64,000 bases of DNA from a virus (IMGVR_UViG_3300025876_000005:72643-136642), one strand, 5' to 3'. Positions 6,268-63,088 are shown, counted from the stretch's first letter. Numbers and translations: made by a program. Notes: generated by a model not told the origin, from the sequence alone.

Positions 6268-6298
6268 AGCCTGAGATTTTTTAGTCTCGGGCTTTTTT
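6268..6298 (+). terminator. Intrinsic terminator
   Basis: AGCCTGAGA / TCTCGGGCT stem followed by a T-run. Confidence 0.7.
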
Positions 6299-6315
6299 AT
6301 TATATTTACACTGTA
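6296..6315 (+). promoter_or_regulatory. Host-type (Bacteroidota-like -7) early promoter
   Basis: TTATATTTACACTGTA matches the 3' part of four other copies of the motif, but lacks the upstream TGTCAA. Confidence 0.55.
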
Positions 6316-6333
6316 ATTAAAACAAAGAACAAC

Positions 6334-6606
6334 ATGAACTACAAGAATTTTAACCGCCACGAAGTTTTTAACTGCGAAGATTTAGACAATGTTCGAGAAG
6401 CCATTAAAAATCTGGGCGAAAAAGAGAAGGCATTTACTTCTATCGAAAACAGTCTTTGGGGACTCTATGACGGTTACCTTTACGAAGGTCTCGATGAAAA
6501 ACTTTACCAAATCTTAGACTTCAAGGTTTTTTGTAACCTTACTAAGACTCTTAAGAAGATTGAAGATCATATTAAAGCTAACGGAGAATCAGTTACATTA
6601 GTCTAA
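6334..6606 (+). CDS. Hypothetical early protein (90 aa; start re-assigned from 6190)
   Basis: ATG at 6334 follows the promoter and an A-rich leader; the longer ORF overlaps the upstream gene and terminator. Confidence 0.6.
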   Translation: MNYKNFNRHEVFNCEDLDNVREAIKNLGEKEKAFTSIENSLWGLYDGYLYEGLDEKLYQILDFKVFCNLTKTLKKIEDHIKANGESVTLV

Positions 6607-6624
6607 CCTTTAAATTATAAAATC

Positions 6625-6942
6625 ATGCAAGTAGCAGATCAAATGCAAGCAGTACGCAAATTAGTAGAGGGCTATTATAAAGACTCATTAGTATGGGACT
6701 ACACAATGCCACCAATGACATCTGACCAAGGTCAACATATAATCCAGATTGGTACATCCATACTCTGTACAAAATGGGGCATTGGTTATTCAGGAGGTAG
6801 CTTTGTACAGGCTGTGGTTGACAATGACCTAATGGCAGCTGTGGGCAGAGCAGATGGCACAAATATTAAGATGCTGCCTTTCTACTGCAAGTTAATCTAT
6901 AACGTCGGTATGCCAATGGAGCTTGCTGAGCTTCAAAAGTAA
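6625..6942 (+). CDS. Conserved-looking phage hypothetical protein
   Basis: 105-aa ORF with GGSFVQAVVDNDL..A..RAD..N pattern. Confidence 0.55.
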   Translation: MQVADQMQAVRKLVEGYYKDSLVWDYTMPPMTSDQGQHIIQIGTSILCTKWGIGYSGGSFVQAVVDNDLMAAVGRADGTNIKMLPFYCKLIYNVGMPMELAELQK

Positions 6943-6959
6943 ACAAACCACGTAGAACC

Positions 6960-6996
6960 AAGCGGGGCAACATCAGAGCGCGTTGCCCCGCTTTTT
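6960..6996 (+). terminator. Intrinsic terminator
   Basis: AGCGGGGCAAC / GTTGCCCCGCT stem followed by a T-run. Confidence 0.8.
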
Positions 6997-7010
6997 AGTA
7001 TAGATATACT

Positions 7011-7036
7011 AAACAAAGTAGTACTTCACCATATAA
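7011..7036 (+). promoter_or_regulatory. Middle-type promoter AAAC-N17-TATAA
   Basis: AAAC at 7011, TATAA at 7032; same spacing at several other intergenic sites. Confidence 0.65.
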
Positions 7037-7051
7037 CATCTAAACAAGAAT

Positions 7052-7384
7052 ATGAGCGATTTAATAGACAACATCTTAGAACAAGCAGACCAAATCATTA
7101 ACCACAGATCAGAAGAAAAGAACCGCCAATACGGTCCTTTCGAAGAAGGCATGCGCAGAGCTGCGATGATCTGTTCTGGTATGACTGGTAAGCAATTCAC
7201 AGGAGCTGACATGTACGCCGCACTTGTTGCTCTTAAACTGAGCAGACACTCTTATAACTACAAGCAAGATAATTTGCTTGATGCTGCAGCTTATATCGGT
7301 GGCCTGGATAACTACATCCAAAAGTACGGCTACAAAGAGACAGAAAAACCACTAGAAACAGGCGACGCAGATGCAGGAATTTAA
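7052..7384 (+). CDS. DUF6378-like / nucleotide-modification-associated helical protein
   Basis: ILEQADQII..R...QYG.F...M..LKLSR......DNLLDAAAY pattern. Confidence 0.6.
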   Translation: MSDLIDNILEQADQIINHRSEEKNRQYGPFEEGMRRAAMICSGMTGKQFTGADMYAALVALKLSRHSYNYKQDNLLDAAAYIGGLDNYIQKYGYKETEKPLETGDADAGI

Positions 7385-11465: not shown

Positions 11466-11930
11466 ATGGCAAACACAGATAATAAATGTTCGGATCTTGA
11501 CGTGGCAGATTTCCACTCAAATGCAGATGACACCTTTGGCTTAATCTTTAACAAGCAGAAAGAATTACAAGAGCGTCTTGGCTTTAATTTTGAAGGCTGG
11601 ACAATCAAAGAAATCGCTGACTTTTGGATGGTTAACAAACATGCATTAAGTGACGAACTCAACGAGATGTTTGATGCCCTAGGCGGTATCAACGACGGTA
11701 TTGGTAACGCAGGCTGGAAGTATTGGAAGCAAGACAATGCAAAAGCTGCTAACATGAAAATTGAAGATCTATCCGAAGCAGACAAATTAGAACTCTTTTA
11801 TGAATGGATTGACGGATTACATTTTTACATGAACTTTGCAATAGCAATTGGTATGACTAGTAAAGATGTTGTTAATCTATACATGGCGAAGAACGCAGAG
11901 AATCACGACAGACAAGAAAGAGGCTACTAA
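11466..11930 (+). CDS. Dimeric all-alpha dUTPase (dUTPase_2/MazG-like)
   Basis: ELNEMFD, WKYWK, EWIDGLHF and Y..KN.EN..RQ..GY motifs. Confidence 0.8.
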   Translation: MANTDNKCSDLDVADFHSNADDTFGLIFNKQKELQERLGFNFEGWTIKEIADFWMVNKHALSDELNEMFDALGGINDGIGNAGWKYWKQDNAKAANMKIEDLSEADKLELFYEWIDGLHFYMNFAIAIGMTSKDVVNLYMAKNAENHDRQERGY

Positions 11931-11950
11931 TTTAAAACAGGATAGAGTAC

Positions 11951-13354
11951 ATGCTATTAGACATTGAGCAGAAAGAAAATGAAGTAATCGTCAGCTACTA
12001 CGATAAGAAAGGCGAAGTTTCATTTAAACGCTATCGCGTAGATAACTTTGAGAATTGGACAGTAGCTGAAGATAACGACAGATACAGAGACCAAAACTTT
12101 AAAAACTGGGACGGCAGAGCAATCAAACGCAAACGCTCAAGAACTTACAACAAATTCAGTCTACTCTATTTTATGGACTCTCTGCCTGAAGCAGATAGAG
12201 AAGAGATCTTTGCATTCAACATGCCAAGAACATACTATGTCGATATTGAGACTGAGATTGTAGATGGCTTTCCAAGACCAGAAGAGGCTAAGAGTCGTAT
12301 CTTAACTTTTTCGATCATTACACCAGAACGTAAAGCAATTGTACTTGGTCTAGATGACTTGAATGCAGAACAGATCAAGAAGATTGAAGATGACACTAAC
12401 GCTCACTTCAAGAACTACGATCAAGACTGGACTTTTAGCTACTACAAGTTTAAGAATGAGTATGATATGCTCTATAACTTCTTGCACAAGTTCTTGCCTA
12501 AGTTTCCAATGATGACCGGCTGGAACTTTATCAACTATGACTGGCAATATATTGTTAATCGCTGTAAGAGGCTACAGATTGATCTAACTGAAGTTGCAAT
12601 CACAGGAGCACTAGACAAAAAAGACTCAAGACCATTACACATGGGTATTCTTGACTATATGCAGCTCTATGATAAGTATGATCGTTCGGTTGCGGTAAAA
12701 GAGTCTAACAAACTTGACTTTGTGTCAAGCCAAGTCTTGAATGTGGCCAAGATTAAATACACAGGTTCACTGCAAGATCTTTACGAGAACAACTTTCAAA
12801 AATATGTTTACTATAACGTAGTTGACTCTGTGTTGGTTTATTATATTGACCAACAGTTAAAGTCAATGGAAGTCCTACTGACCTTATCAACTATTACTAA
12901 AATGCCACTCTATAAAGCAGCCAGCCCCGTTGCAGTAACAGAGTCTTTAATTGCAAGAAAGCTTGCAGAAGACAACGTTAAGATCGGCGTTGAGTATGAC
13001 AAAGAGGACAGTAAGAAAGACGGTCAGTATGAAGGTGCTTTTGTAAAACAACCAATTGTTGGTTATTACTCAGGAGTAAGTGCATTTGACTTTGCATCAC
13101 TGTACCCATCGGTGATGAGGCAGTTTAATATCTCGCCGGATGCTTTCATTGAAATTGTACCGGAAGCTGAAATTGCCGAGCGCAGAAAAGATAATAACGT
13201 AATCGTTTGCGAGAACGGAGTTGTCTATAAAAAGGAAGATTCAATCCTAAAAAAGATCCTCAGCGATCTATATGCACAAAGAAAGGAATACAAGAAGGCT
13301 TCATATGCTTATTATGAAAAAGCACATGAACTTCAAAAAAAATTTAGGCTCTAA
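11951..13354 (+). CDS. gp43: Family-B DNA polymerase, N-terminal part (3'-5' exonuclease, motif A, first finger helix); gp43A-like
   Basis: YVDIETE, GWNFINYD, YNVVDS, YEGAFV and DFASLYPS are present; the ORF ends after LYAQRKEYK without motifs B and C. Confidence 0.9.
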   Translation: MLLDIEQKENEVIVSYYDKKGEVSFKRYRVDNFENWTVAEDNDRYRDQNFKNWDGRAIKRKRSRTYNKFSLLYFMDSLPEADREEIFAFNMPRTYYVDIETEIVDGFPRPEEAKSRILTFSIITPERKAIVLGLDDLNAEQIKKIEDDTNAHFKNYDQDWTFSYYKFKNEYDMLYNFLHKFLPKFPMMTGWNFINYDWQYIVNRCKRLQIDLTEVAITGALDKKDSRPLHMGILDYMQLYDKYDRSVAVKESNKLDFVSSQVLNVAKIKYTGSLQDLYENNFQKYVYYNVVDSVLVYYIDQQLKSMEVLLTLSTITKMPLYKAASPVAVTESLIARKLAEDNVKIGVEYDKEDSKKDGQYEGAFVKQPIVGYYSGVSAFDFASLYPSVMRQFNISPDAFIEIVPEAEIAERRKDNNVIVCENGVVYKKEDSILKKILSDLYAQRKEYKKASYAYYEKAHELQKKFRL

Positions 13355-13367: not shown

Positions 13368-13406
13368 AGCAGCCTGTTTGATATATAAAAAACAAGCAGC
13401 GCTGCT
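13368..13406 (+). promoter_or_regulatory. Inverted repeat whose loop contains the GATATATA late-type motif
   Basis: AGCAGC-CTGTTTG ... CAAGCAG-C-GCTGCT; GATATATA at 13380-13387. Confidence 0.55.
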
Positions 13407-16474: not shown

Positions 16475-16526
16475 TGAAACTGTTTGCTCTTTTCACATAC
16501 AATAACTAAACATAAATTAAAAAAAT

Positions 16527-17270
16527 ATGAAGTTAAAAATTGATCGTATTGACCAGCACGCGTTGACCAACTTTATCAATCGCGTTAAGCTAATTGACTC
16601 TTTCATCTACATGAAAATCACTAATGGTAGAATCGAGTCTTCTGTTTATTTACCGCAGAGAGATGCAGTAAAGAGCCATGTTGTAAACATGGACCAGATT
16701 TTCCAGACCAATGAGATTGTACCTAGTGACAAAGCCCTAAAGATTGCATTCTTCGATGGTGTTAAAGTTATTGAAGCAATCAAACACTTTGAACATGATG
16801 CTATTAAAGGTGAAATTGAATTCATCGAGAATGATGAAGAATACGTAGCATCTACGTTTAGAATCTACAACGATGAGTTAGAAATTAAGCTATCTTGTTC
16901 AGAACCATCATTGGGCTTTAAAGATCTTACAAAAGAGCAACAAGAAGCTATCTTCTCAAGAGATAATAGTGCATTCAACTTTGAGATCGATACTCATATG
17001 ATTAACAAAGTAAAGAACTTGTTTAATCTAGACACAGAAGAAACATTTAGTATTAAAGCTAACGGTAAAGGAGTTAACGTTGATGGTAAATCATTTAGCG
17101 TTGTGATTAATCCAGAAAGCAAAGGCTCTGGTAAGGCTACAGTCTATAAGAAGTATTTGAACCTGTTAGACAGGGAAGAACAAAACGTGTTCGTATCGAG
17201 CTCGAAAGTTGTCTTCCAGTCTAAGGATTCAGAAACACTATTAACTGTATCAACTTGCCAAACAGCTTAA
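16527..17270 (+). CDS. gp45: Probable sliding clamp (gp45-like)
   Basis: 247 aa, beta-rich, directly upstream of the polymerase C-terminal gene. Assignment rests on size and context; preceded by AAAC-N17-TACAA. Confidence 0.55.
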   Translation: MKLKIDRIDQHALTNFINRVKLIDSFIYMKITNGRIESSVYLPQRDAVKSHVVNMDQIFQTNEIVPSDKALKIAFFDGVKVIEAIKHFEHDAIKGEIEFIENDEEYVASTFRIYNDELEIKLSCSEPSLGFKDLTKEQQEAIFSRDNSAFNFEIDTHMINKVKNLFNLDTEETFSIKANGKGVNVDGKSFSVVINPESKGSGKATVYKKYLNLLDREEQNVFVSSSKVVFQSKDSETLLTVSTCQTA

Positions 17271-24818: not shown

Positions 24819-24865
24819 CATAATAATTCAGTAGGATATATACTAAAAAACAAACATATTCTACA

Positions 24866-27307: not shown

Positions 27308-27348
27308 ATTAGACAGATATATAATTAAACAAAAAATCAAAATACGAA

Positions 27349-28546: not shown

Positions 28547-28577
28547 GAGCCCGTTTGGAAACAAATGGGCTTTTTTG
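28547..28577 (+). terminator. Terminator overlapping a middle-type promoter for gp55
   Basis: AGCCCGTTTG-GAAA-CAAATGGGCT followed by a T-run; AAAC at 28559, N17, TATAA at 28580. Confidence 0.7.
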
Positions 28578-28604
28578 TTTATAATATACATAAAAATAAA
28601 AAGA

Positions 28605-28991
28605 ATGATCCAGGTGGCTAAGAAAAAGAACTATCTCAACAATAAAGACCTTTACAACGAAATTGTAAAATCAAAAGAAGCAGGCAAGTTAACTAGAGAC
28701 GCTGAGAAGATGTTAGTGCTTCTTGCAGAACGTACAATTAGAAAATTAACCTATGTAAATGAAGATGATAGAAATGACTGTCTACAGTTTGCTCTATTAG
28801 ACTTACTTAAATACTGGCAGAACTTTAACCCAAAATATACCAACGCATTTGCATATTTTACAGAGATAGCAAAAAGAGGCTACGCAAAAGGCTGGAATAA
28901 AATTCACCCAACAAAGTATAAGAACACACTGTCAATTGACCGTATTAGTGGAAACGGCTCAGATCACGACGGTGGCATGTTTAACATCTAA
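28605..28991 (+). CDS. gp55: T4 gp55-like late sigma factor (start re-assigned from 28575)
   Basis: KNYLNNKDLYNEI, DDRNDCLQFA, NFNPKY.NAFAYFTEIA. Confidence 0.85.
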   Translation: MIQVAKKKNYLNNKDLYNEIVKSKEAGKLTRDAEKMLVLLAERTIRKLTYVNEDDRNDCLQFALLDLLKYWQNFNPKYTNAFAYFTEIAKRGYAKGWNKIHPTKYKNTLSIDRISGNGSDHDGGMFNI

Positions 28992-30065: not shown

Positions 30066-30095
30066 GATATATAAAATTGAAAATACTATCATAAT

Positions 30096-31700: not shown

Positions 31701-31714
31701 AAGATATATAGATT

Positions 31715-32071: not shown

Positions 32072-32126
32072 TAAGATATTTACATAAGCAAAGCTGATAT
32101 ATATTAAAAATAGAAAAACACATAGA

Positions 32127-34386: not shown

Positions 34387-34429
34387 AACTTTTGCAAAAA
34401 AGCAAAAATTAAGAAGATATATAAACTGA

Positions 34430-36040: not shown

Positions 36041-36089
36041 TTTATAGAAGTCTGATATATAATACAAAGATACTAAAAAAAATAAGAGT

Positions 36090-37459: not shown

Positions 37460-37521
37460 ATATACTATCTATCAGTGAAACTAAGAGGCCAGCTTTCATA
37501 TAAGATACAAAAGTAACTTAT

Positions 37522-38478
37522 ATGCAGTCAATAAACCAGCTCTTCACAGAGAAGTATCGTCCAAAAGATTTAAGCGAGTTGATCTTACCAGATCGTGTAA
37601 TGAATAAGTTTAAAGATGGCCTAGTTCAGAATATGCTGTTTGCAGGCAGTCCTGGAACTGGTAAAACATCAGCAGCTAAAGCAATCGTCAATCAATTTGA
37701 ATTGCCTTATCTCTATATTAACGCATCAACAGATACTTCGGTTGACGTGATTAGAACTAGAATCACTGACTTCTGTTCAACGGTTTCAATTATGGACAAA
37801 CCAGGCAGCTTTAAAGTTGTAATCCTAGATGAGGTTGACGGTGTATCGGATCAGTTCTTTAAAGCACTGCGTGCGACAATGGAGATATTTGCAAGTAACA
37901 GCCGCTTTATTGCAACATGTAACTACATCAATAAATTACCAGATCCAATCTTAAGCAGATTTGAAGTAATTAACTTTGACTTTGACAAGGAAGAAGAGGC
38001 TGAATTGACTAAGAAATATATCAAGCGTGTTTATAATATCTGTAACCAAGAAGAGATGACAATTGAAAAACCAGCATTAGTTGAGTTTGTACGTCGTAAC
38101 TTCCCAGATCTAAGAAGCACCTTGAATAAGCTACAGGGCTATAAAACACAAGGTACAAACCATATTACTGAAGCAGAAGTTAAACGCTTCAACTCAGTCT
38201 ATAAAGATGTTTTTGATCTAATCTTTAACGAGACAGATCCAGCTAAGAACTATCAGCTCTTGGTAAGCAATTACGCTTCAAAGACAGATGACATCTTACA
38301 GACACTAGGCGATGACTTTGTCGAATATATAAAACAAGAAAGATCTCAAAGCGTAAAACATATACCACAGATTATTATTACAGTGGCTAAGCACCAAGCA
38401 CAAAGAGTCCATGTAATCGATCCTGTTGTAACCATGTTAAGCTGTGTATATGAGATCCAGACTATTGTAAGAGAATAA
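37522..38478 (+). CDS. gp44: Clamp loader ATPase subunit (gp44/RFC-like)
   Basis: EKYRP, GSPGTGKT, INAS, ILDEVD and SRF motifs; AAAC-N17-TATAA at 37478. Confidence 0.92.
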   Translation: MQSINQLFTEKYRPKDLSELILPDRVMNKFKDGLVQNMLFAGSPGTGKTSAAKAIVNQFELPYLYINASTDTSVDVIRTRITDFCSTVSIMDKPGSFKVVILDEVDGVSDQFFKALRATMEIFASNSRFIATCNYINKLPDPILSRFEVINFDFDKEEEAELTKKYIKRVYNICNQEEMTIEKPALVEFVRRNFPDLRSTLNKLQGYKTQGTNHITEAEVKRFNSVYKDVFDLIFNETDPAKNYQLLVSNYASKTDDILQTLGDDFVEYIKQERSQSVKHIPQIIITVAKHQAQRVHVIDPVVTMLSCVYEIQTIVRE

Positions 38479-38505
38479 CAAGATTTTTGTAAAATAATTT
38501 TTCAG

Positions 38506-38536
38506 TGTCAAATATTTTTATTATATTTGTACTGTA
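38506..38536 (+). promoter_or_regulatory. Host-type early promoter
   Basis: TGTCAA-N10-TATATTTG-T-ACTGTA. Confidence 0.7.
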
Positions 38537-38552
38537 CGTAAAAGATAACAAT

Positions 38553-40433: not shown

Positions 40434-41067
40434 AGATACATTTTCAGAAGTTGTAGATATTACACTCTACAAGTATAACTCAATAGATTTAAAACTATGG
40501 GGCTTACTCAAGCGCCATTATAATTCTAAAGAGCTAGCTAAGGACTCTGTCTTGATTTCTGCAAATGATCTTAAAAATGTAGTTAACGAATACTTCTATG
40601 ATGATCTAAACATAATAGACTCAGTCGGTGAAAGTCTATTACACAAAGAGGCAACCACAATCTACTTTATTAAAAAGATTTTTGAGAATATGACTAGTCT
40701 TAGATGGCTTAAAGTCAATCTCAATAAGAACATGAGCTATAAACGCATAGTTGAGATCGAGCAGATTAAAACTATCAAGTTCAGTATTAAAACACTAAGA
40801 GGTACTTTCAGAGTCTTTGACCATTTTAACAGCCATCAAACTTATGTTATTAATAAGCTTTTAAATAAGATGGATCTGTTAAACTCAGGTGAATATTTTA
40901 AAGTGGTTAAGACTAATGAGTTAATGAACAAGATTGATAACTATCTTGTTGCAAACAACACAAATGAAATCTTCACTATACTCAATGCGATGATACAATA
41001 CTTTGAGGCATATGAGACTGATAACCCAGAAATACTCTTAATCACCGATATTGAGTCTGATATATAA
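40402..41067 (+). CDS. Hypothetical protein
   Basis: 221-aa ORF in the operon. Confidence 0.6.
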   Translation: MKSRLMFTQNKDTFSEVVDITLYKYNSIDLKLWGLLKRHYNSKELAKDSVLISANDLKNVVNEYFYDDLNIIDSVGESLLHKEATTIYFIKKIFENMTSLRWLKVNLNKNMSYKRIVEIEQIKTIKFSIKTLRGTFRVFDHFNSHQTYVINKLLNKMDLLNSGEYFKVVKTNELMNKIDNYLVANNTNEIFTILNAMIQYFEAYETDNPEILLITDIESDI

Positions 41068-43031: not shown

Positions 43032-43062
43032 TCTAGATATATAGCATATAAAAGCACAACTT

Positions 43063-45913: not shown

Positions 45914-45971
45914 AAAACGTGAGTAGCACAGATATATAAACAAAGAATCTAAAAAAAAAGAACAAATAACA

Positions 45972-48908: not shown

Positions 48909-48944
48909 GAAACTAAAGATATATAAAATAAAAGAAAGATAAAA

Positions 48945-49502: not shown

Positions 49503-49521
49503 TAAGTATTTAGAATACATA

Positions 49522-49556: not shown

Positions 49557-49593
49557 AAACTTGAAACATATTACAATACCAACATAATATACT

Positions 49594-49815
49594 ATGAACA
49601 ACCATAAACTGACAAAGAAGTTGCAAGTACTTTTGACAGAGGATGAGGTTAATCAGGTCAATAGGATTATATTGAATGATGCATTAGAAAAGGAGGAAAG
49701 ACCAGTTTCTATCAGTGCGTTTATACGTGTATTAATCCAACAAGAACTGAGTAAACGTTCAGCCGAAGAAAAAACAACTATAAAAAGAGACCTTAAAAAC
49801 TTAAAAGATAAGTAA
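49594..49815 (+). CDS. Ribbon-helix-helix (CopG/Arc-like) DNA-binding protein
   Basis: KLQVLLTEDE...SISAFIRVLIQQEL; AAAC-N17-TATAA at 49564. Confidence 0.65.
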   Translation: MNNHKLTKKLQVLLTEDEVNQVNRIILNDALEKEERPVSISAFIRVLIQQELSKRSAEEKTTIKRDLKNLKDK

Positions 49816-49816
49816 C

Positions 49817-51035: not shown

Positions 51036-51043
51036 ACTAAAGA

Positions 51044-51074: not shown

Positions 51075-51107
51075 GTGTGATATATACAATAAATTATAAT
51101 TTCCAGC

Positions 51108-51554: not shown

Positions 51555-51569
51555 TTTTTTAAACACTAG

Positions 51570-54500: not shown

Positions 54501-55934
54501 TTTAAAGGTGCTCTGGCGACTATTCTAGTTGCAGTAACCATCAGTGCAGTATCTTGGATATTCTCATTCTTAGAAGGTACTTGGAGCGCGCCTCCGATCG
54601 AATGGTCTAAAAGTTCAGGTATAGCTATCTTAGTGTTTGGCGTCTCATTTGCAGTTCTGACCATGTTGTTTGACAAGATGGGAATTGGCTACGGCGGTAT
54701 GCTAAAAGGAGCAATCGGTATGGTTGTAGTTGCACTTGCAATAGTTGGTGTAGCATGGATATTTACATGGATGCCAGATAGTTTTAACAGTGCGCCACCA
54801 ATGGACTGGTCAATGGGAGTTGCACTTGCATTGGTATTATTTACAATACCAGTACTTATTATTGGCTTGATTGCAACAAGTGGTGTTGGAGCTCTTGGTA
54901 TTCTACTCGGTGTTGTAGGTATAATTGTAATCGCAGCAGGTATATTAGCCGTTGCCTGGATCTTAAGCGCTATGCCAGATTTAGGTGCTATCTCGAAAAA
55001 CTTTACAGATGCCTTGATGACACCGATCAATGCGATTATCGATGCATTCGCAAGAATTAAAAATGAGCTCGGTGTTGAAAATCTATTAAGTCTTGCAGTA
55101 GGCGTAGCAGCACTTGGTGTTGCCTGGTTAGTCTTCGTCGGAGCAACTGCAGGTGCAAGTGTTGCTGGAGGAGTAGGAAAATTAATCGGAGGCTTACTTG
55201 ATGGTATTGCAGGTCTATTTGGCGCTGATACCACATCACCTCTTGATATTCTAGAAAAACTAGCAGAAATCGCACCAAAATTAACAGAACTTGCAAGTCC
55301 CTTAATGGATATTTCAGGCGCATTTTTAAAGTTTACGGCTTTGTTCTCTGACGGAGCTGTAGAAAAAATAGGAAAACTATTTAATGCAGTGTTGGTCCCA
55401 ATGGATGTAAAAACACTTGCAATGCTTGGAGTTAATAGCATGAGTACATATTTAGACAAATTACAGGCCACGATGCGTCATGTTGCTGAATCGTATGGTA
55501 TGATTGCGATCGCCTCTAAAGGTATGAACGTTGAGGCAATTAGGGCATCTACTGATATGTTTAATGCACTTGCTTATCTTGCTAGTGTTGGTAAGGATAA
55601 TGCTCTTGCTCAACTTGGAGATAAGCTGATCTTAGCAGTTCAAGAATTAGCAAGTATGATTGCAGACTTTGAAGGTACTGTTGCTGAAGCTGGAGATACA
55701 AACAATCAGGCTTCATCTAACATCTCGAATGCTGCTTCTAAACTTGTGGATAAACTTTCAGGACTCGTTAGTAGTGGCATTATTTCTAAACCTGCACCTG
55801 CAACTGCAGCTCAAGCTGGTGGTGGCGGTGGAAATGCAAATACACAAGAGATCGACGTTAGTAGTATCGTTAGAGCGATCCAAGAGTTAGAAGATACTCT
55901 AACGGCACAAGGCATTAAGATCAAAGAAAGATAA
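51570..55934 (+). CDS. Tape measure protein
   Basis: 1454 aa, Ala/Gly/hydrophobic, helical repeats, follows hub/chaperone genes. Confidence 0.8.
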   Translation: MAKQNTDKILIGHAINTNSLLSKIEYIAAETKESMTRIEEISKTSLSVTSGLAASIAENTAVLKDIKDVLMKKTVDEGAKLKTGITIEKMLGLGGLIAVVGFGVFTLSQAFQATRGVSVKDIAMGTLIMAGLVPMMKAIEPLLNGESGDGLFRSTQKLLIFTAGIMAMVTMVVATSYALAGMAAPDGSKLLTFIAISAALYIQGQIFIQLINAWEFSGLMNKFLNANNTNEIMQAMVVMSLNTIIIAGALSMMPDVSPKTAASFVIASAAMIPLAGALFVVRFALPMLNKIGPKQVALLGATMAAMALALIPVGLAARALAAINVTDADVAKVEGLIKILIPIAALVGFMTALANLGKESLISLRGPKDDSVSLLKQDNSRKRNQKMDLKGIGIFALKAVTFLAAGGLLAVAFAKAAPYLAQGISAMNGLDYTGLVKFIAVAGVAVLLFGVAIGMVVSMVKGKETSTPGLMNLTGSAKSKPAKMSTADIIFAGLVLPMIIGGIVIAALGFKLINAVGVPEVSGNLLAFIAVAGLGVLIFGTVLGVVSNLMKGKVSKGLFKGGRPAKMSYKDVLVSALIIPAIALGIVATALVFKALPAGLTDKNAPDPTWSLTAGLSILAFGVTFALVTRALSKARVGFKDIAKGTVAMVGIAVSIVAISYIFQALGNTRTAPPVDWALTVSLSLLAFGIGFAMITKALQDRKIGFKDIAKGAVAVVGVAAAIVALALAFSFLPGTYKTPPVEWSLKAGLSILAFGIGFAMITKALQKRKIGFKDIAKGAVAVVGVAAAIVATSLAFSFLPGIYKTPPAEWSLKAGLSILAFGITYALVTKALQSRRVGFKDIAKGGATMLAIAASIVGISFIFGMLGNTWNAPPPLWSLTAGLSILAFGITYALVTKALQSRRVGFKDIAKGGAAMLAIAASIVGISFIFGMLGNTWNAPPVEWTQTAGIALLAFGAPFAILTVLFAKFRVGYNDMFKGALATILVAVTISAVSWIFSFLEGTWSAPPIEWSKSSGIAILVFGVSFAVLTMLFDKMGIGYGGMLKGAIGMVVVALAIVGVAWIFTWMPDSFNSAPPMDWSMGVALALVLFTIPVLIIGLIATSGVGALGILLGVVGIIVIAAGILAVAWILSAMPDLGAISKNFTDALMTPINAIIDAFARIKNELGVENLLSLAVGVAALGVAWLVFVGATAGASVAGGVGKLIGGLLDGIAGLFGADTTSPLDILEKLAEIAPKLTELASPLMDISGAFLKFTALFSDGAVEKIGKLFNAVLVPMDVKTLAMLGVNSMSTYLDKLQATMRHVAESYGMIAIASKGMNVEAIRASTDMFNALAYLASVGKDNALAQLGDKLILAVQELASMIADFEGTVAEAGDTNNQASSNISNAASKLVDKLSGLVSSGIISKPAPATAAQAGGGGGNANTQEIDVSSIVRAIQELEDTLTAQGIKIKER
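53382..54992 (+). repeat. About eight tandem 201-nt (67-aa) repeats in the tape measure gene
   Basis: xPPxxW units start at 53382, 53583, 53784, 53985, 54186, 54387, 54588 and 54792. Confidence 0.9.
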
Positions 55935-55975
55935 ACAATCTCTAAGTTGATTATATAAGTTGTAAAGACTTACAT

Positions 55976-56203
55976 ATGATAACGAGCACAATTTCACATT
56001 ACGATTCATCTACGGTCAAGTCAGCAGCTTACAATGTTGAGCATAAGACTCTAACTGTACATTTCAACCATGCGTCTTACTTTTATAAAGACGTTGAATT
56101 AGCAGACTGGAATCTTTTCAATATGGCAGACTCACAAGGCAGAGCCTTGAACGAGATTATTAAGCCTAACTATGAATTTGAGAAAATACAAGAGACTGTA
56201 TAA
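55976..56203 (+). CDS. KTSC domain protein
   Basis: SSTVKSAAYN....TLTVHF....Y.Y..V.......F..A.S.GR; AAAC-N17-TATAA at 55933. Confidence 0.85.
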   Translation: MITSTISHYDSSTVKSAAYNVEHKTLTVHFNHASYFYKDVELADWNLFNMADSQGRALNEIIKPNYEFEKIQETV

Positions 56204-57201: not shown

Positions 57202-58372
57202 GAAATTTCTATTAGTAACATCATTCTATAATAACCCACAAGAACACTTTGAACTTACTGTTAAGAATGTACTTAATCAGACTTACCAGAATTGGGTTTT
57301 AATCATTGGCGATGACTTTAGTGCAGATCCAGAATACAGAACCTGGCTTAAGAATGAGATCTTAAAGGTCAATGACCCGAGAATTATGTACTATGATGTG
57401 AAGGAGAAGCGAGAACTCTATCTCTATCAGAACTTCTTTCAACACCTAGACTATGATTACTATTTTGATCTAGACTCGGATGATCTGATTGACCCTAATA
57501 TTCTACAGACGTATCACAACCACTTCGATGCATATCCAGATGCCATGAGTGTATTTAGTGATTCAACGATGACCAATGTTGAAGGTCAATTACAACAGTA
57601 CTTCTTTGTCAAGCCACCTAAAGATTATGTTGCTGAGTTTAACTATCGTTCTACTAATGATGTTAACCAGCTCTGGAAAGACAGATCTTCTTATAATATG
57701 TATGGCCATGCTAGATGTATGCGCAGACCAACCGAAAGTGCTATGCACATGAATAAGAATACTAGAACCTCAACGGACACTCTGTTTACATTCTATAATC
57801 TGACTCGAGGCAAACACCTACATATACCAAGAAGGATGTATACTTATGTACGCAGAGATGGTTCAGATTCAGGCCGGATGTCAGCTGAAGAATATGCTGA
57901 TTTTAACATGAACGCAAGTTACTATATTAACAAGTATGCTAACATGGAACCAACCGGCCACATTCCAGTCTACGACCATCTTTACAATTACACATCGGCC
58001 ATTTCAGCTTGTAAATTCTTAGACTCTGTGGATCGAGTAAGCCTTATTGCAGACATATCTGATGCAGACCAAGTGCTGATTAAGACAATTTACCACGACA
58101 AGACTATTCTCTTCAATGATTATAGCTGTCCAAATATAATTGTGCCCTGGAAAGAGTTAGCAGAAAGTAGCAGAGAACGACTTTTGGCAAACCTGAGCAC
58201 ATTTGATCGAGTTACAATATACAACCATGTTGAAGGTGAATTTGACAATATGGAAGATGCTAGCAACCATTTCAATGCAGATCACCAGAAAGTACTTGAT
58301 ACTATCAAGGGTAAGATGTTTGGCTATGGCTGGTGGTACTTCTTTAGACACATGACGGTTACAAAACAGTAA
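57188..58372 (+). CDS. Glycosyltransferase family 2-like (GT-A)
   Basis: TSFYN, VLNQTYQNW...DDFS and LDSDD. Confidence 0.8.
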   Translation: MNQDKKFLLVTSFYNNPQEHFELTVKNVLNQTYQNWVLIIGDDFSADPEYRTWLKNEILKVNDPRIMYYDVKEKRELYLYQNFFQHLDYDYYFDLDSDDLIDPNILQTYHNHFDAYPDAMSVFSDSTMTNVEGQLQQYFFVKPPKDYVAEFNYRSTNDVNQLWKDRSSYNMYGHARCMRRPTESAMHMNKNTRTSTDTLFTFYNLTRGKHLHIPRRMYTYVRRDGSDSGRMSAEEYADFNMNASYYINKYANMEPTGHIPVYDHLYNYTSAISACKFLDSVDRVSLIADISDADQVLIKTIYHDKTILFNDYSCPNIIVPWKELAESSRERLLANLSTFDRVTIYNHVEGEFDNMEDASNHFNADHQKVLDTIKGKMFGYGWWYFFRHMTVTKQ

Positions 58373-58416
58373 TTGTTAATAACTTTGTGCAAAAAAGTTG
58401 CCACAGGATTTTTTTA

Positions 58417-58447
58417 TGTCAATCTTTTTGTTTATATTTATACTGTA
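58417..58447 (+). promoter_or_regulatory. Host-type early promoter
   Basis: TGTCAA-N10-TATATTTA-T-ACTGTA. Confidence 0.7.
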
Positions 58448-58477
58448 ATTGAAAGTTAAACATAAACAAAAACAAAA

Positions 58478-58864
58478 ATGAAAAAAGTAACATCATTCAA
58501 CCGTCAAAACATCCGTCAAATCAACTCTGAACTTGAAGCAGTTATTAAGCAAGTGGCTGAAAAATACGGACTAGAAGTTAAACTTGGTAACACTCGCTTT
58601 ACTGGCGATAATTTTACCACTAAAGTTCAAGTAGCTACAGTTGCTGAAGGTGGCATCACAATGTCAAAAGAGGCTACTGATTTTAATCGCTACAAGACAA
58701 TCCTTGGGATTAACATGGACCTTGGACAAGAGTTCCAACGCAGCGGTAAAACATTTACTATCGTGGGTCTTAAACCACGTAGCAAAAAGTACCCAATCTT
58801 GGCTAAATGCTCTGACGGTAAGACATACAAACTTCCAGTTGATCTAGTAAACATGTACGCATAA
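58478..58864 (+). CDS. Hypothetical early protein
   Basis: 128-aa ORF after the early promoter. Confidence 0.65.
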   Translation: MKKVTSFNRQNIRQINSELEAVIKQVAEKYGLEVKLGNTRFTGDNFTTKVQVATVAEGGITMSKEATDFNRYKTILGINMDLGQEFQRSGKTFTIVGLKPRSKKYPILAKCSDGKTYKLPVDLVNMYA

Positions 58865-59202
58865 TGGAAGCACTAATCAAATTAACAGCAGATGAAGCCC
58901 GGTACGAAGCTACTGGGACTTCACTTAAAGGCTATCTAAAGAGAGGTATTAAATTTACTGACCTTTACAAAGTCTTAGGAGAACCAACCTTTAAACCAGA
59001 AGATTCTGGCGACGGTAAGATTCAATACGAATGGGTCCTTAAGTGGAACGGTAATATCTATACAATCTACGACTGGAAGACCTACAACCAAGACCACACT
59101 TTAACCGAGTATGACTACTGGCACGTTGGTGCTAAAGTTTACTCTGGTGACTTTGAAGACCTAATTGAGAACATGGTAAATAAGAACTTATGCCTGAACT
59201 AG
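58864..59202 (+). CDS. Hypothetical protein
   Basis: 112 aa; LGEPT...DGKIQYEW...YTIYDWK. Confidence 0.65.
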   Translation: MEALIKLTADEARYEATGTSLKGYLKRGIKFTDLYKVLGEPTFKPEDSGDGKIQYEWVLKWNGNIYTIYDWKTYNQDHTLTEYDYWHVGAKVYSGDFEDLIENMVNKNLCLN

Positions 59203-60035
59203 CAGAACTTAAACTGACAGCAGACTACGTTAATCAGTCAACACAAGGCAGAGTCTTTGGTGGGATAGAAAAGAATCCGATCCATAAAGGTGCAGAAGTC
59301 TCTGTGCCTTTCGATCAGTTTGAAATTCAGGCGAAGAGTCGAGGCAAAGAGCTCTTACTAGAGCTTAAAGACCTTAATTCAGACAGAGTCTATCCAATAC
59401 GGATGGGTATGGGCATGTCAGGGCACTTCAGGCTAACTCAAAAGGCCCAAGAAGATAAACATGCACACTTAAAGTTCGGTGCCACAGACGGCCACGTATT
59501 GTCTTTTGTGGACGTGCGACGTTTCGGTAACTGGAATGCAGGTGAGAGCTGGTCAGACAAGCGTGGCCCGGATCCAACTACCGATTATAGAGAATTCTTC
59601 TTGAATGTGACGACTAATCTGACCAAGGCTAAATTTAACAAGCCACTCTTTGAAGTCCTGATGGACCAAAAGTACTTTAATGGCATTGGTAATTATCTAA
59701 GAGCAGAGATCATCTACCGTGCTGAAGTTAATCCATTTCTACCAGCTAGAGAGCAACTAACAAGCTACCCAAAGATCTTAGAGCTATGTCGAGATATTCC
59801 GATGCTGGCCTACCAAAGAGGTGGTGGCGCAATCAAAGACTGGGATAATCCATTCGGCAAAGAGAGCCAAGTTGGTAAATTTATGCTCTGTTATGGAAAC
59901 AAAGAGATGAGTCAACGTATAGACTCTACTGGGCGTCGTTTTTGGTACGACCCACATTGGGACAAGTTAGATCTAGAATCAGAATGGGATTACTATTCAG
60001 GGCTACCGAACCCAAAAGCTTATGAAAGAACGTAA
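59190..60035 (+). CDS. fpg: Fpg/Nei family DNA glycosylase/AP lyase, apparently without a C4 zinc finger
   Basis: N-terminal MPE, RGK, GMSG, DVRRFG, GPDP and H2TH motif LMDQ..FNGIGNYLRAE. Confidence 0.88.
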   Translation: MPELAELKLTADYVNQSTQGRVFGGIEKNPIHKGAEVSVPFDQFEIQAKSRGKELLLELKDLNSDRVYPIRMGMGMSGHFRLTQKAQEDKHAHLKFGATDGHVLSFVDVRRFGNWNAGESWSDKRGPDPTTDYREFFLNVTTNLTKAKFNKPLFEVLMDQKYFNGIGNYLRAEIIYRAEVNPFLPAREQLTSYPKILELCRDIPMLAYQRGGGAIKDWDNPFGKESQVGKFMLCYGNKEMSQRIDSTGRRFWYDPHWDKLDLESEWDYYSGLPNPKAYERT

Positions 60036-60066
60036 ACAATTTTAAACTTAAACGTATAATACAAAT

Positions 60067-60540
60067 ATGAAATTAGTACTCGTAGGCAAAGCAGCATCTG
60101 GTAAAGACTATCTTAAGACTCGATTAAAGAAGAAGGGTTTTAAGATAGGTGTTAGCCATACTACAAGGCCACCTCGACCATCTGAAACAGATGGTGTTGA
60201 TTATCGCTTTACAGACGAAGCCACCTTTAAACAGATGATCGAAAAAGATCAGTTTGTAGAATACATGCACTTTAACGGCTGGTACTATGGCCAGACTAAA
60301 GAAGACTTCACACACGCAGAAGTTATGATTATGAGCAAAGATGGCCTAGACATTTTACCGGAACAATACCGTAAAGAATGTATGGTGATCTACTTAGATA
60401 TTGACCGTAAGACTAGAGTTGAAAGACTTAATCTGAGAGAAGACCCAAATGATTCAGTTGAACGGCGTTTACTCGCAGACGACGAACAGTTTAAAGGCTT
60501 CAACGACTTTGAAATCCGCATTACTAACCCAGATTTTTAA
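60067..60540 (+). CDS. gmk: Guanylate kinase-like
   Basis: GKAASGKD, SHTTRPPR..E.DGVDY.F and YYG; AAAC-N17-TATAA at 60034. Confidence 0.85.
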   Translation: MKLVLVGKAASGKDYLKTRLKKKGFKIGVSHTTRPPRPSETDGVDYRFTDEATFKQMIEKDQFVEYMHFNGWYYGQTKEDFTHAEVMIMSKDGLDILPEQYRKECMVIYLDIDRKTRVERLNLREDPNDSVERRLLADDEQFKGFNDFEIRITNPDF

Positions 60541-60577
60541 GAATATATAAAATCAAGAATCTTAAATTTTAATAAAC

Positions 60578-61099
60578 ATGTCATTAGAAACACTCAAGAC
60601 AAAAAGAACAGAGCTAATTGAAAAATTAGACGAATTACAAACCCAGTCTGCTGAAAGGCTATTTGAAATAGAACTAGACGATCGTAAGCAGATTAAAACA
60701 ATTATGGAGCACTTAAACAAAGGCTTCACCTGGAAGACTCAAAACGCTGCGGTTGTTGTAGCTCTTTACGATCAGTTAAAGAAGCAGAACAAAGAGTTAA
60801 CCAGCTCTGAAGAAGAGGCTACAGTAATTAAACTAAAAGCTCACGAGCTTAACGGTCTTTACCAAGCTCTTCTTAACGTAGAAGGCGTTGGTGTTGAATC
60901 AGCACGCCGTTTTATCACAATGTTAACCAACGTTGGTGAGACAGTAACCAACGCAATGTCAGTACTTGGTGAGATGAACAAGGAGATCTCAGAGATGCAC
61001 GCAGAACTAGATGCAACCGAAAGAGAGATTGCTGAGCTTGAAAACACTGAAGAAGTAGAACCAGAGTTAGAAAGAACGACTCTAGAAAATAGAGTGTAA
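60578..61099 (+). CDS. Coiled-coil hypothetical protein
   Basis: 173 aa, Glu/Leu/Lys rich; GAATATATA at 60541. Confidence 0.6.
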   Translation: MSLETLKTKRTELIEKLDELQTQSAERLFEIELDDRKQIKTIMEHLNKGFTWKTQNAAVVVALYDQLKKQNKELTSSEEEATVIKLKAHELNGLYQALLNVEGVGVESARRFITMLTNVGETVTNAMSVLGEMNKEISEMHAELDATEREIAELENTEEVEPELERTTLENRV

Positions 61100-61635
61100 T
61101 GAAGACATCGAGTAAGAGCAGAAAAAGATTGGACTTCCTGGATTTAATCCAGGGAGTTCTTACTCACGATGACATCTACGAAACAATCGATTATCGCAGA
61201 CAGAGTGAGGACAAGATCAAGCAGTTCATCTATCCACATTTGATAGAGAACTTGACAACACATCTTGTTGAGACAAAAGAGTTAGATAAAACCACTGCAA
61301 AAGAGCGCGTAAAAGAGGCCTTGAAATGGGAAGGTAATGTTAAGACTACAGTCAACAACATTCTTTTCATGGGTACTCAAAACAGACCAGACATGGTACT
61401 CGAGATGAACGGGCTACGCATTGCAATTGAGTTCAAGCGTGGCGGTAAAGGTTCAGAACTGCGTAGCGGTATCGGTCAGTCAATGATCTATGCAACACAT
61501 TATGACTTTGTAATCTACCTCTTTATTGATACAACAGAAGACAAGAGAATCCAAAACTCGGTTGATAGCGTAAACGAGAGTGAGTTTATCGAAGAGCTTT
61601 GGAACAGATACAACATCAAATTTATTGTAGCTTAA
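61099..61635 (+). CDS. PD-(D/E)xK restriction-endonuclease-fold protein
   Basis: RPDMVL...AIEFK...GIGQSMIY (PD..ExK plus QxxxY). Confidence 0.7.
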   Translation: MKTSSKSRKRLDFLDLIQGVLTHDDIYETIDYRRQSEDKIKQFIYPHLIENLTTHLVETKELDKTTAKERVKEALKWEGNVKTTVNNILFMGTQNRPDMVLEMNGLRIAIEFKRGGKGSELRSGIGQSMIYATHYDFVIYLFIDTTEDKRIQNSVDSVNESEFIEELWNRYNIKFIVA

Positions 61636-62150
61636 TGAAGAGATTTGTAACTTCAAATATGCAGCTGGGTCGTCCAGCTGCTATTAAAACTTATAAGAGA
61701 CCTTTCGAGAATGTAGATGAGATGACCGACGCTCTAATCAGAGAGTGGAATAATGTCGTCTCTCCAGGTGATCTTGTCTATCACTTAGGTAACTTTGCCT
61801 GGGATCCAAAGACAGCACAAGAGGCCTTAGATCGACTTAACGGTAACATTTGGTTACTGCCAGCAGAATACGATGATGCTGTAATGATCTTGGCTAGAAA
61901 AGGTCTACTAAGAGATGGTGTTAAGGTGATTAACCGAATTATGCCGCTTGAAATGATGAAGGCTAATCTAAGTTACTGGCCAATGGAAGCCTGGCCCGGC
62001 AAACAGAAAGGTTACTACTCAATCATAGGTCACCCGCAGAAGCAATTCAAGAGTGACCCAAAGAAGAAGCGCATTAACGTTTCTACTGATCTCTGGGGTT
62101 TTAAGCCACAGGATCTAGAGAAGACTTTACAGATCTTTTACGACATCTAA
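61635..62150 (+). CDS. Calcineurin-like phosphoesterase homolog with substituted metal ligands (start re-assigned from 61599)
   Basis: Scaffold RPF.NVDEM...LI.EWN..V..GD.VYHLG is retained, but motifs read SNMQLG, GNF, AEYD and IGH. Confidence 0.7.
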   Translation: MKRFVTSNMQLGRPAAIKTYKRPFENVDEMTDALIREWNNVVSPGDLVYHLGNFAWDPKTAQEALDRLNGNIWLLPAEYDDAVMILARKGLLRDGVKVINRIMPLEMMKANLSYWPMEAWPGKQKGYYSIIGHPQKQFKSDPKKKRINVSTDLWGFKPQDLEKTLQIFYDI

Positions 62151-62185
62151 ACTTTTTGCAACTTTTTTGCAAAAAAGTTTTCTAG

Positions 62186-62217
62186 TGTCAATCTTTTTTA
62201 TTATATTAGTACTATAA
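62186..62217 (+). promoter_or_regulatory. Host-type early promoter of the ECF sigma gene
   Basis: TGTCAA-N10-TATATTAG-T-ACTATA. Confidence 0.65.
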
Positions 62218-62239
62218 TTATCACACAAAGAAAAAATAT

Positions 62240-62857
62240 ATGTCAAAAACATCCGATTTAAGCTACAGAGAATTAGCAGAGAACTTTTATGCTTCACGCA
62301 GTGAAAAAGACTACAATGTACTTTACAAGAAGGTAAAGCCAGGACTTAAGTCTTATATCTTTAACATCATTAAAGACTCAGAAGCAACTGGCGATGTCTT
62401 AGCTAATACTCTGACTAAGCTTTGGACTAAGATAGATCAGTACAAACCAGAGTATCAAGTAACTACATGGCTTTACAAGATAGCATTCAACGAATGTCTA
62501 AGTCATATTCGTAAGCGTAATCGTAAGTACAGTCTAGATGCAATGCGAGATTATGGGATCGAAGTAACTGAAGGCAACCATACAACAAACATGGCCGACA
62601 ATTTACTCTTAGACTCAGAAGAGCGCATGACTGAAGCAGACTTCTACGAAGAAGATGAGTATTTACAAAATCGTTACGAAAGTGCAATTGAGTGTATTAA
62701 CAGCCTTAAGCCAATGTACCGTGAGATTATGCAAGATCGTCTATTTCACAATATGAAGTACGAAGACATTGCAGAGAAATACAACGTATCTCTACAGACT
62801 GTAAAGAATAGAGTACGTCGCGGAAAAGTTCTAATCCAAAGAGCGATGGGCGAATAA
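62240..62857 (+). CDS. ECF-type sigma-70 family sigma factor
   Basis: Region 2 LTKLWTKIDQY...TTWLYKIAFN; region 4 MKYEDIAEKYNVSLQTVKNRVRR. Confidence 0.88.
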   Translation: MSKTSDLSYRELAENFYASRSEKDYNVLYKKVKPGLKSYIFNIIKDSEATGDVLANTLTKLWTKIDQYKPEYQVTTWLYKIAFNECLSHIRKRNRKYSLDAMRDYGIEVTEGNHTTNMADNLLLDSEERMTEADFYEEDEYLQNRYESAIECINSLKPMYREIMQDRLFHNMKYEDIAEKYNVSLQTVKNRVRRGKVLIQRAMGE

Positions 62858-62898
62858 AGTTGAAACTTTTAAAAAGTTAACGATATATACTATCACAA

Positions 62899-62973
62899 AT
62901 GAAATTATTGAATAACATAGAGCTGAATTTAAGAAGACTAGAACCTAGTCTTGGAAGCCCTCTTATTCGATAA
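62899..62973 (+). CDS. Putative attenuator leader peptide MKLLNNIELNLRRLEPSLGSPLIR (24 aa)
   Basis: ATG just after AAAC-N17-TATAT / GATATATA (62863-62889); overlaps the 5' arm of the antiterminator. Confidence 0.55.
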   Translation: MKLLNNIELNLRRLEPSLGSPLIR

Positions 62974-63030
62974 ACTCAGATAAGACACCAACTAACCAGA
63001 GGGCTTCAAGAAATTGAGGCCCTTTTTTTT
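62934..63030 (+). promoter_or_regulatory. Attenuator-like mutually exclusive antiterminator/terminator
   Basis: Hairpin 62934-62952; GAAGCCCTCT (62954-63) pairs with AGAGGGCTTC (62998-63007); terminator GGGCTTCAA-GAAA-TTGAGGCCC-T8 (63001-63030). Confidence 0.65.
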
Positions 63031-63057
63031 GCAAAAAAAGTCAAAAAAAGTTTTTAG

Positions 63058-63088
63058 TGTCAAACTTATTTGTTATATTTGCACTGTA
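63058..63088 (+). promoter_or_regulatory. Host-type early promoter of the tRNA cluster
   Basis: TGTCAA-N10-TATATTTG-C-ACTGTA. Confidence 0.7.

Follow-up and report, generated by a model that had tools for sequence, protein, structure and literature searches.

Three promoter classes and two phage sigma-type proteins suggest a host sigma, ECF sigma, gp55 cascade in a T4-like phage of marine Bacteroidota

Here we analyzed the promoters and sigma-type proteins of an uncultured T4-like phage in a window of 64,000 nucleotides, bases 72643-136642 of the 176,489-bp virus contig IMGVR_UViG_3300025876_000005 (G000; coordinates below are window positions unless stated otherwise). Three recurring promoter motifs, their exact spacing, the gene sets that they head and the conservation of this wiring in related phages are direct observations, from which we infer what reads each motif and when. 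The most economical reading, which we hold with moderate confidence, is a cascade in three steps: (i) host sigma-A would read class 1, as the fit of the motif suggests, and switch on small early genes, tRNAs and a phage sigma factor of the extracytoplasmic function (ECF) type; (ii) this ECF sigma factor, proposed by elimination and from the type of motif, would read class 2 and switch on genes for DNA modification, nucleotide metabolism, the replisome (clamp, clamp loader, polymerase, helicases and single-stranded DNA-binding protein, SSB) and a gp55-like factor, thereby filling the slot held by MotA/AsiA in T4; and (iii) the gp55-like protein, which has a region 2 fold only, would read class 3, GATATATA, before the virion genes, as its homology with T4 gp55 implies. 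All three steps would run on the host core RNA polymerase. A first-pass annotation of the window had proposed the same cascade; the promoter wiring that it described is present and conserved, whereas its assignment of class 2 to the ECF sigma factor draws on elimination, on a GAAAC -35 element and on the lack of enrichment of the motif in a Parabacteroides genome, and we accordingly word that step as a proposal.

Results

Class 2 promoters precede replication genes and have a fixed spacer

Class 2 had been described as AAAC-N17-TAYAA. As written, this pattern carries little information, yet it is real: it matches nine times in the window compared to 2.5 expected, and none of 100 shuffles reaches nine. 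A stronger test is a scan of spacer lengths, for which, as for the other motif work, we used G000 and three related genomes (G004, G001 and G003). Intergenic AAAC-Nx-TATAA occurs 12, 32, 28 and 24 times at x = 17 in G000, G004, G001 and G003, respectively, and 0 to 5 times at all other spacers from 12 to 22; the peak at 17 is not seen inside genes or on the minus strand of these four genomes. A logo built from 87 class 2 sites revealed G or T before AAAC in 82 of them and A or G before TATAA likewise in 82, although neither position was preset by the search. The logo further shows A/T-only positions after AAAC and, five to six nucleotides downstream, a conserved T-A that is probably the start site. 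Refined in this way, the motif reads [G/T]AAACwww-N13-[A/G]TATAAt.

Not every site in the initial list survived this refinement. Those at 7011, 16477, 28559, 37478, 55933 and 60034 stand and are intergenic, whereas 49564 falls off the pattern and 62863 turned out to be a hybrid, in which a class 2 -35 element is joined to a class 3 -10 element (GATATATA) in the same register. Dual sites of the form AAAC-Nx-GATATATA are too few for any preferred spacer to show. Further matches to AAAC-N17-TAYAA at 2508, 12125 and 18019 all lie inside genes and are probably due to chance. The sites in the window are as follows:

7010..7042, plus strand: class 2 promoter, TAAAC-N16-ATATAA, before the DUF6378 gene, the modification operon and the N-terminal part of the DNA polymerase
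16476..16508, plus strand: class 2 promoter, GAAAC-N16-ATACAA, before the sliding clamp and the C-terminal part of the DNA polymerase
28558..28590, plus strand: class 2 promoter, GAAAC-N17-TATAAT, before gp55, with AAAC in the loop of a terminator hairpin
37477..37509, plus strand: class 2 promoter, GAAAC-N16-ATATAA, before the clamp loader gp44
55932..55964, plus strand: class 2 promoter, TAAAC-N16-ATATAA, before genes of 75, 332 and 394 amino acids without assigned function
60033..60065, plus strand: class 2 promoter, TAAAC-N16-GTATAAT, before guanylate kinase
49563..49595, plus strand: off-pattern class 2-like site, TTGAAAC-N16-ATAATA (AAAC-N17-TAATA or N16-ATAAT), not AAAC-N17-TAYAA
62862..62894, plus strand: class 2/3 hybrid, TTGAAAC-N15-GATATATAC, before a leader and tRNA region

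Class 2 heads the genes for dCMP deaminase, a helicase and a gp32-like SSB and the modification operon with the N-terminal part of the polymerase; it also heads the sliding clamp with the C-terminal part of the polymerase, gp55, gp44, guanylate kinase, a Lon-like protease and thymidylate synthase (ThyA). The earlier placement of the middle genes (modification, clamp, clamp loader and gp55) under class 2 therefore holds, an upstream class 2 site having been found for each. The motif does not look like a general feature of Bacteroidota chromosomes, to judge from one control: AAAC-N17-TATAA is not enriched in a 4-Mb gut Parabacteroides genome (42 sites compared to 90 for the reversed control), which is not that of a marine flavobacterium.

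The phage encodes one ECF sigma factor and one gp55-like protein

Two sigma-type proteins are encoded in the window:

62240..62857, plus strand: ECF-type sigma factor, 205 amino acids, sigma regions 2 and 4.2 only
28605..28991, plus strand: gp55-like late sigma factor, 128 amino acids, sigma region 2-like fold only

The 62240 protein matches Pfam Sigma70_r2 at residues 28-95 and Sigma70_r4_2 at 149-196, with no region 3 match, and scores 78 bits against TIGR02937 (sigma70-ECF), for which the cut-off is 42.9. Its best subfamily is Sig70_bacteroi1, a Bacteroidetes expansion family, at 83 bits, below the cut-off of 126, and its relatives in the PDB are AlgU-like ECF sigma factors (6in7, 8z6g) and SigW (5wuq). 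The protein belongs to a phage-only clade of 906 clusters (E<=1e-10), across which region 2 and the 4.2 recognition helix (LQTVKNRIRRGK) are invariant and the linker is variable. Because its cellular relatives are at most 31% identical and mostly ECF sigma factors of Planctomycetota, they provide neither a clue to the host nor a promoter specificity that could be transferred; no cellular or known-phage relative of the family lies above ~32% identity.

The 28605 protein matches phrog_234, annotated as "late sigma transcription factor" (E 2.4e-11). The top Foldseek match of its structural model (pLDDT 75) in the PDB is T4 gp55 (7d7c_F; E 2.9e-3, prob 1.00, TMq 0.64), followed by sigma region 2 domains. 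A profile search of the PDB with the gp55 alignment placed T4 gp55 at E 0.59, which is not significant, and the protein has no region 4 match in Pfam. Its relatives in IMG/VR number 427.

We extended the search for regulators to G000 and four relatives, including G004, a complete 256-kb genome with terminal repeats. Using Sigma70_r2, r4, r4_2 and phrog_1740, we found exactly one sigma factor with regions 2 and 4 plus one gp55-like protein in each of the five genomes. Neither MotA (PF09114) nor AsiA (PF09010) has a match at E<=1 in any of them, in agreement with the earlier suggestion that the phage does without this pair. A candidate second sigma factor at genome positions 11846-11980 (L084) was rejected: two stop codons interrupt the weak Sigma70_r2 match (21 bits), and the local open reading frames (ORFs) have no sigma domain. 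This match, which lies just after a class 1 promoter at a place with two small ORFs and an RNA ligase as the next gene, is probably due to chance.

Since there are two promoter classes that are not of the host type and two phage sigma-type proteins, readers can be proposed by elimination. A -35 element at fixed spacing needs region 4, and only the ECF sigma factor has one, so class 2 is assigned to this protein; class 3, which consists of a -10 element only, is assigned to the gp55-like protein because the latter has region 2 only. ECF sigma factors typically read a -35 element that contains AAC, and the one of class 2, GAAAC(www), resembles the tGAAAC(nTTT) that Bacillus ECF sigma factors read at -35 (PMC5758882).

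Promoter wiring of both regulator genes is conserved

As first described, class 1 precedes the sigma gene (62240-62857) and class 2 the gp55-like gene (28605-28991), and both arrangements extend to relatives. Upstream of sigma orthologues, all 34 distinct regions carry a TATATTWV -7 box and none carries class 2 or class 3; upstream of gp55 orthologues, AAAC-N17-TAYAA occurs in 42 of the 44 distinct regions and also in five large relatives. Directly upstream of gp55, a terminator hairpin (28536-28575; stem AGCCCGTTTGG/AAATGGGCT, then a T-run) carries the class 2 AAAC in its loop, and this DNA is best described as a predicted terminator and promoter in one stretch. Among relatives (L090-L169), the stems covary (AGCCCGTTT/AAATGGGCT, ACCCACTT/AAGTGGGT and GGTCGAT/ATCGACC) or are absent. 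AAAC-N17-TATAA persists where the stems change or vanish, and the box must therefore be selected for its own sake. The placement of AAAC in a terminator loop is confined to the gp55 locus: as a general property of class 2 it was ruled out, being seen at 4 of 79 sites compared to 71 of 600 controls.

Beyond the two regulators, we compared promoter classes between orthologues, defined as reciprocal best hits from three genomes with 52-63% mean identity. The class is kept in 12 cases for class 2, 26 for class 3 and 4 for class 1, with one switch from class 2 to class 1 and no swap between class 2 and class 3 among these reciprocal best hits. We also looked for covariation between the sigma factor and the -35 element in distant relatives, using spaced-dyad counts in three 40-kb regions of LR756500.1 and Lak-C1, whose sigma factors are 27-32% identical. 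The method proved uninformative: the counts were dominated by the 22-25% GC composition and by codon periodicity, and class 2 was missed even in the window.

Two virion genes follow gp55 in the stretch 28991-30065: one encodes a homologue of a T4 head-completion protein (phrog_218), the other a homologue of the DNA end protector gp2 (phrog_429). As no promoter intervenes, the class 2 promoter of gp55 may drive transcription of both along with gp55.

Class 1 fits the host promoter type

The class 1 core, TATATTWRNACTRTA, has five matches in the window (6301, 38522, 58433, 62202 and 63074) compared to 0.01 expected from shuffles; these are the five sites of the first-pass annotation, all recovered and with no others. 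Strict copies in the 176-kb contig number 15, all of them intergenic and ~25-45 nucleotides before a gene or tRNA. Each is a cassette of ~70 nucleotides that starts with TGCAAAAWAATTG, continues with either GCAAAAAAGTTTTCTAGTGTCAATC or a strong hairpin (GGCCTGACA-TTTTTTTA-TGTCAGGC and variants) and ends in a 3' portion of the form CTTTTTTAT-TATATTWR-yACTGTAATTAAAA. The window holds the following:

6253..6324, plus strand: class 1 cassette, hairpin subtype, -7 box TATATTTA at 6301-6308
GCCTGAGA-TTTTTT-AGTCTCGGGC, plus strand: terminator-like hairpin of the 6253..6324 cassette, covering the -33 and spacer region
38474..38545, plus strand: class 1 cassette, -7 box TATATTTG at 38522, before an exonuclease-like gene (38553-39827)
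58385..58456, plus strand: class 1 cassette, -7 box TATATTTA at 58433, before a gene of 128 amino acids without assigned function
62154..62225, plus strand: class 1 cassette, -7 box TATATTAG at 62202, immediately before the ECF sigma gene
63026..63097, plus strand: class 1 cassette, -7 box TATATTTG at 63074, before the tRNA cluster (tRNA-Glu start 63112)

Two details of the original description have to be revised. TGTCAA, taken for the -35 element, is not conserved, since in 7 of the 15 copies the strong hairpin (free energy, dG, -13 to -18) places its 3' arm at that position; and the site at 6296, listed as partial, is a full member of this hairpin subtype. In the subtype, the -33 T-run lies in the loop and the 3' arm and T-tract form the spacer, and terminator and promoter are therefore fused.

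What class 1 retains over long distances is much shorter than the cassette. Across the 34 distinct upstream regions, whose sigma orthologues show 53-100% protein identity, only two parts of the cassette recur: TATATTWV and, exactly 19 nucleotides upstream of it, TTTT or TTTC. The same TTTT/TTTC at 19 nucleotides is present in the window copies as well as in relatives, and the final G of a -33 TTTG is absent. The putative -7 boxes TATATTTG, TATATTTA and TATATTAG match 6 to 8 of the 8 positions of TAnnTTTG, a flavobacterial consensus. Bacteroidota promoters combine a -33 element, TTTG or TTG, with a -7 box ~19 nucleotides further downstream, and flavobacterial sigma-A reads TAnnTTTG at -12 to -5 (PMC9723704). 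Judged by its sequence, the class 1 core (T-run, 19 nucleotides, TATATTWR) fits such a sigma-A -33/-7 promoter. The class heads small genes, a PNKP phosphatase, an operon with an RNA ligase as its third gene, an exonuclease, the sigma gene and tRNAs.

The first transcribed bases after class 1, (ACTGTA)ATTAAAA, are kept within the contig (6316-6325, 58448-58456 and 62217-62225), and TAATTAAAA after class 1 is also kept in distant relatives (L001-L045), which exceeds the needs of a sigma-A promoter. These conserved bases may serve as an element of the 5' leader or be bound by an early shut-off factor.

Class 3 is a -10-only promoter before virion genes

Class 3, GATATATA, heads structural (virion) genes, and 24 of its 32 plus-strand copies in the contig are intergenic. 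An alignment of 104 sites located at most 110 nucleotides upstream of gene starts in the four genomes revealed a conserved A five nucleotides downstream and no information further upstream than -8, and this makes class 3, as far as its sequence tells, a -10-only promoter like the T4 late promoter. Its core, ATATA, is common to the class 2 -10 element (nRTATAAt) and lies at the same distance from the conserved downstream A, with three positions differing. The copies in the window are these:

13380..13387, plus strand: class 3 GATATATA, before the gene for the small subunit of ribonucleotide reductase (RNR)
24835..24842, plus strand: class 3 GATATATA
27316..27323, plus strand: class 3 GATATATA, class kept at the orthologue in 3/3 relatives
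30066..30073, plus strand: class 3 GATATATA
31703..31710, plus strand: class 3 GATATATA
32096..32103, plus strand: class 3 GATATATA, class kept at the orthologue in 3/3 relatives
34416..34423, plus strand: class 3 GATATATA
36054..36061, plus strand: class 3 GATATATA
41059..41066, plus strand: class 3 GATATATA
43036..43043, plus strand: class 3 GATATATA
45931..45938, plus strand: class 3 GATATATA
48918..48925, plus strand: class 3 GATATATA, before a tail-tube-like gene, class kept at the orthologue in 3/3 relatives
51079..51086, plus strand: class 3 GATATATA

Phage clade, host type and replication genes

Nearly all genes of the contig lie on the plus strand, and its replication and virion genes are T4-like. 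CheckV places its completeness at ~59%, so that the promoter and regulator counts given for G000 are lower bounds. In the phage collection, huge uncultured phages and Prevotella Lak phages come closest, with protein identities of 27-57%, and a near-identity search of that collection with the window returned tRNA matches only. The same DNA is present in marine and estuary metagenomes from 12 studies. We place the phage in a large, uncultured clade of T4-like phages that probably infect marine Bacteroidota. A Shine-Dalgarno motif is found at 9 of 154 phage genes compared to 70 of 770 control windows, and the leaders are A-rich; Bacteroidota genes likewise lack Shine-Dalgarno motifs and have A-rich leaders (PMC6847099). 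These two properties and the sigma-A-like class 1 boxes point to a host of the Bacteroidota type.

Two replisome proteins named above were identified as follows:

16527..17270, plus strand: sliding clamp (gp45 analogue), 247 amino acids, by fold search
37522..38478, plus strand: clamp loader large subunit (gp44-like), phrog_168 E 3e-73, Pfam Gp44_lid

For the clamp, the top 50 Foldseek matches in the PDB are all PCNA or beta clamps (E ~1e-6, from a low-confidence model). The family B DNA polymerase is seemingly split into two genes ~4 kb apart, 11951-13354 and 17274-18482, which correspond to positions 88-495 (N-terminal part) and 484-843 (C-terminal part) of phrog_262; they are separated by the RNR genes, a class 2 promoter and the clamp gene.

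At least six metatranscriptome runs contain the stretch, and the four that we compared over 44001-64000 consist of low-depth assembled contigs that carry no start, end or strand information. The tRNA cluster (63344-64000) is covered thousands of times over by RNA-library contigs with numerous loose ends and joints; this depth comes from tRNA-like sequence of other organisms and does not represent phage expression.

Discussion

Our analysis suggests that a phage-encoded ECF sigma factor occupies the middle position of a three-step transcription program, and several observations weigh against this. The sigma gene has no adjacent anti-sigma gene, being followed by the hybrid promoter and then tRNAs, and its own proposed promoter type, class 2, is found upstream of 0 of 34 orthologues. 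Most cellular ECF sigma factors are co-transcribed with an anti-sigma factor and autoregulate their promoter, an arrangement that is usual and not universal. A gp33 homologue was not found among the ten small proteins scanned in a nonexhaustive search, and G000 itself is only ~59% complete. Further, the ATATA that the -10 cores of class 2 and class 3 share in register may indicate a shared or related -10 reader. Finally, the CGT box that ECF promoters usually carry is missing from the class 2 -10 element, RTATAA (PMC9723704, PMC5758882).

This last point bears on an alternative that we regard as unlikely, in which class 2 is read by the host sigma-A holoenzyme, redirected by a phage activator or appropriator that binds the AAAC box, and the ECF sigma factor has a narrower role. 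T4 middle promoters do pair an activator box near -30 with a sigma-70 -10 element, the TATAAt of class 2 is not ECF-like for want of CGT, and many early genes of the phage have no known function. However, no Pfam match to MotA or AsiA is present in the five genomes, the class 2 -10 element lacks the TTTG that Bacteroidota sigma-A needs, and a rigid 17-nucleotide spacing combined with a GAAAC -35 element is what would be expected from a two-domain sigma factor. Moreover, a redirected host holoenzyme would leave a strictly conserved early sigma factor without a promoter class.

The shared register of the -10 cores raises a different arrangement, a partly split sigma, to which we give little credence. 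Here, the gp55-like protein would read the ATATA of both class 2 and class 3, and the ECF sigma factor, or its region 4 alone, would add the class 2 -35 contact, with region 4 doing a gp33-like job, such that a single -10 reader is retargeted by adding or removing a -35 reader. This would account for the alignment of the -10 cores relative to the conserved downstream A, for hybrids such as 62863 that combine the -35 element of class 2 with the -10 element of class 3 in that register, and for the failure to find a gp33 homologue among the small proteins tested. Yet in 42 of 44 relatives class 2 heads gp55 itself, which therefore could not start its own synthesis, the ECF sigma factor has an intact and highly conserved region 2 of its own, and among the few hybrid sites no spacer is sharply preferred.

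Just as improbable, in our view, is an autoregulated ECF sigma factor that reads class 1, with class 2 or an unrecognized motif as the host-read early class: although class 1 precedes the sigma gene in every relative and is conserved over ~70 nucleotides, beyond what a host promoter needs, distant relatives share only the -33 T-run and the -7 TATATTWR of Bacteroidota sigma-A grammar, class 1 has no AAC at -35 and hairpin arms freely substitute for its TGTCAA, class 2 shows no enrichment in the one Bacteroidota chromosome searched and does not fit TAnnTTTG, and class 1 heads tRNAs and small early-type genes.

Thus, a host sigma, ECF sigma, gp55 cascade is the reading that we favor. T4-type phages are the textbook case of timed transcription. 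To our knowledge, though, the MotA/AsiA middle switch is confined to a few lineages. For the timing of replication genes in other T4-like phages, the widespread clade described here offers a precise candidate answer, namely, a defined promoter, [G/T]AAAC-N17-TATAAt, with one candidate reader and a wiring that is kept at 50-65% protein identity. If the cascade holds, it would represent a hybrid between a sigma relay of the SPO1 type and the T4 late system, operating on the unusual RNA polymerase and promoter grammar of Bacteroidota, and it would supply orthogonal promoter and sigma parts for Bacteroidota genetics.

The T4 program uses sigma-70 for early genes, MotA/AsiA for middle genes and gp55-gp33-gp45 on TATAAATA for late genes. 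As in T4, early, replication and virion genes are here divided among three promoter classes, gp55 would belong to the middle genes, the late class consists of one -10 box, presumably read by the gp55 homologue, and the clamp and clamp loader would, on the proposed timing, be expressed before the late genes. Unlike in T4, there is no match to MotA or AsiA, the middle class is a -35/-10 pair at a fixed 17 nucleotides for which a full phage sigma factor is available, the late box is GATATATA instead of TATAAATA, the host promoters are of the Bacteroidota -33/-7 type, and gp33 has no counterpart among the ten small proteins scanned.

In the Bacillus phage SPO1, the relay is reported to run from host sigma-A to gp28 and then to gp33/gp34 (PMC13401047). 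The proposed cascade resembles SPO1 in that successive phage sigma-type factors replace the host sigma on the host core and in that the first phage sigma factor is an early gene that switches on the gene for the next; it differs in its late factor, a gp55 of the T4 type (region 2 only) instead of the gp33/34 pair, and in a middle sigma factor that is ECF-type. Coliphage phiEco32 and its relatives (7-11, SU10) redirect the host core with a small, early ECF-like sigma factor, gp36 (PMC4331800, PMC12276001, PMC4281155), whose targets, like those proposed here, are phage promoters with a -35/-10 grammar of their own. However, these are podoviruses of 70-80 kb with two tiers and no gp55, their sigma factor drives middle and late genes together, and it shows no close sequence relationship to the one described here, whose family has no known-phage relative above ~32% identity.

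A precedent for the combination of factors comes from the T4 superfamily itself, in Sinorhizobium phage PhiM9 and Rhizobium phage P10VF, which encode gp55 together with an RpoE-type sigma factor and have no recognizable gp33 (PMC4621102). The phage studied here likewise has gp55 and an ECF (RpoE-like) sigma factor together, with no gp33 homologue among the ten small proteins scanned. The PhiM9 sigma factor resembles the RpoE of its alphaproteobacterial host and was proposed as a possible late factor, with no promoter classes assigned (PMC4621102), whereas the sigma factor described here belongs to a phage-specific clade and is accompanied by a distinct, conserved promoter class before replication genes. 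The cascade that we propose, well defined and testable, would join the late system of T4 to a phage sigma factor of the SPO1 or phiEco32 kind in the middle slot.

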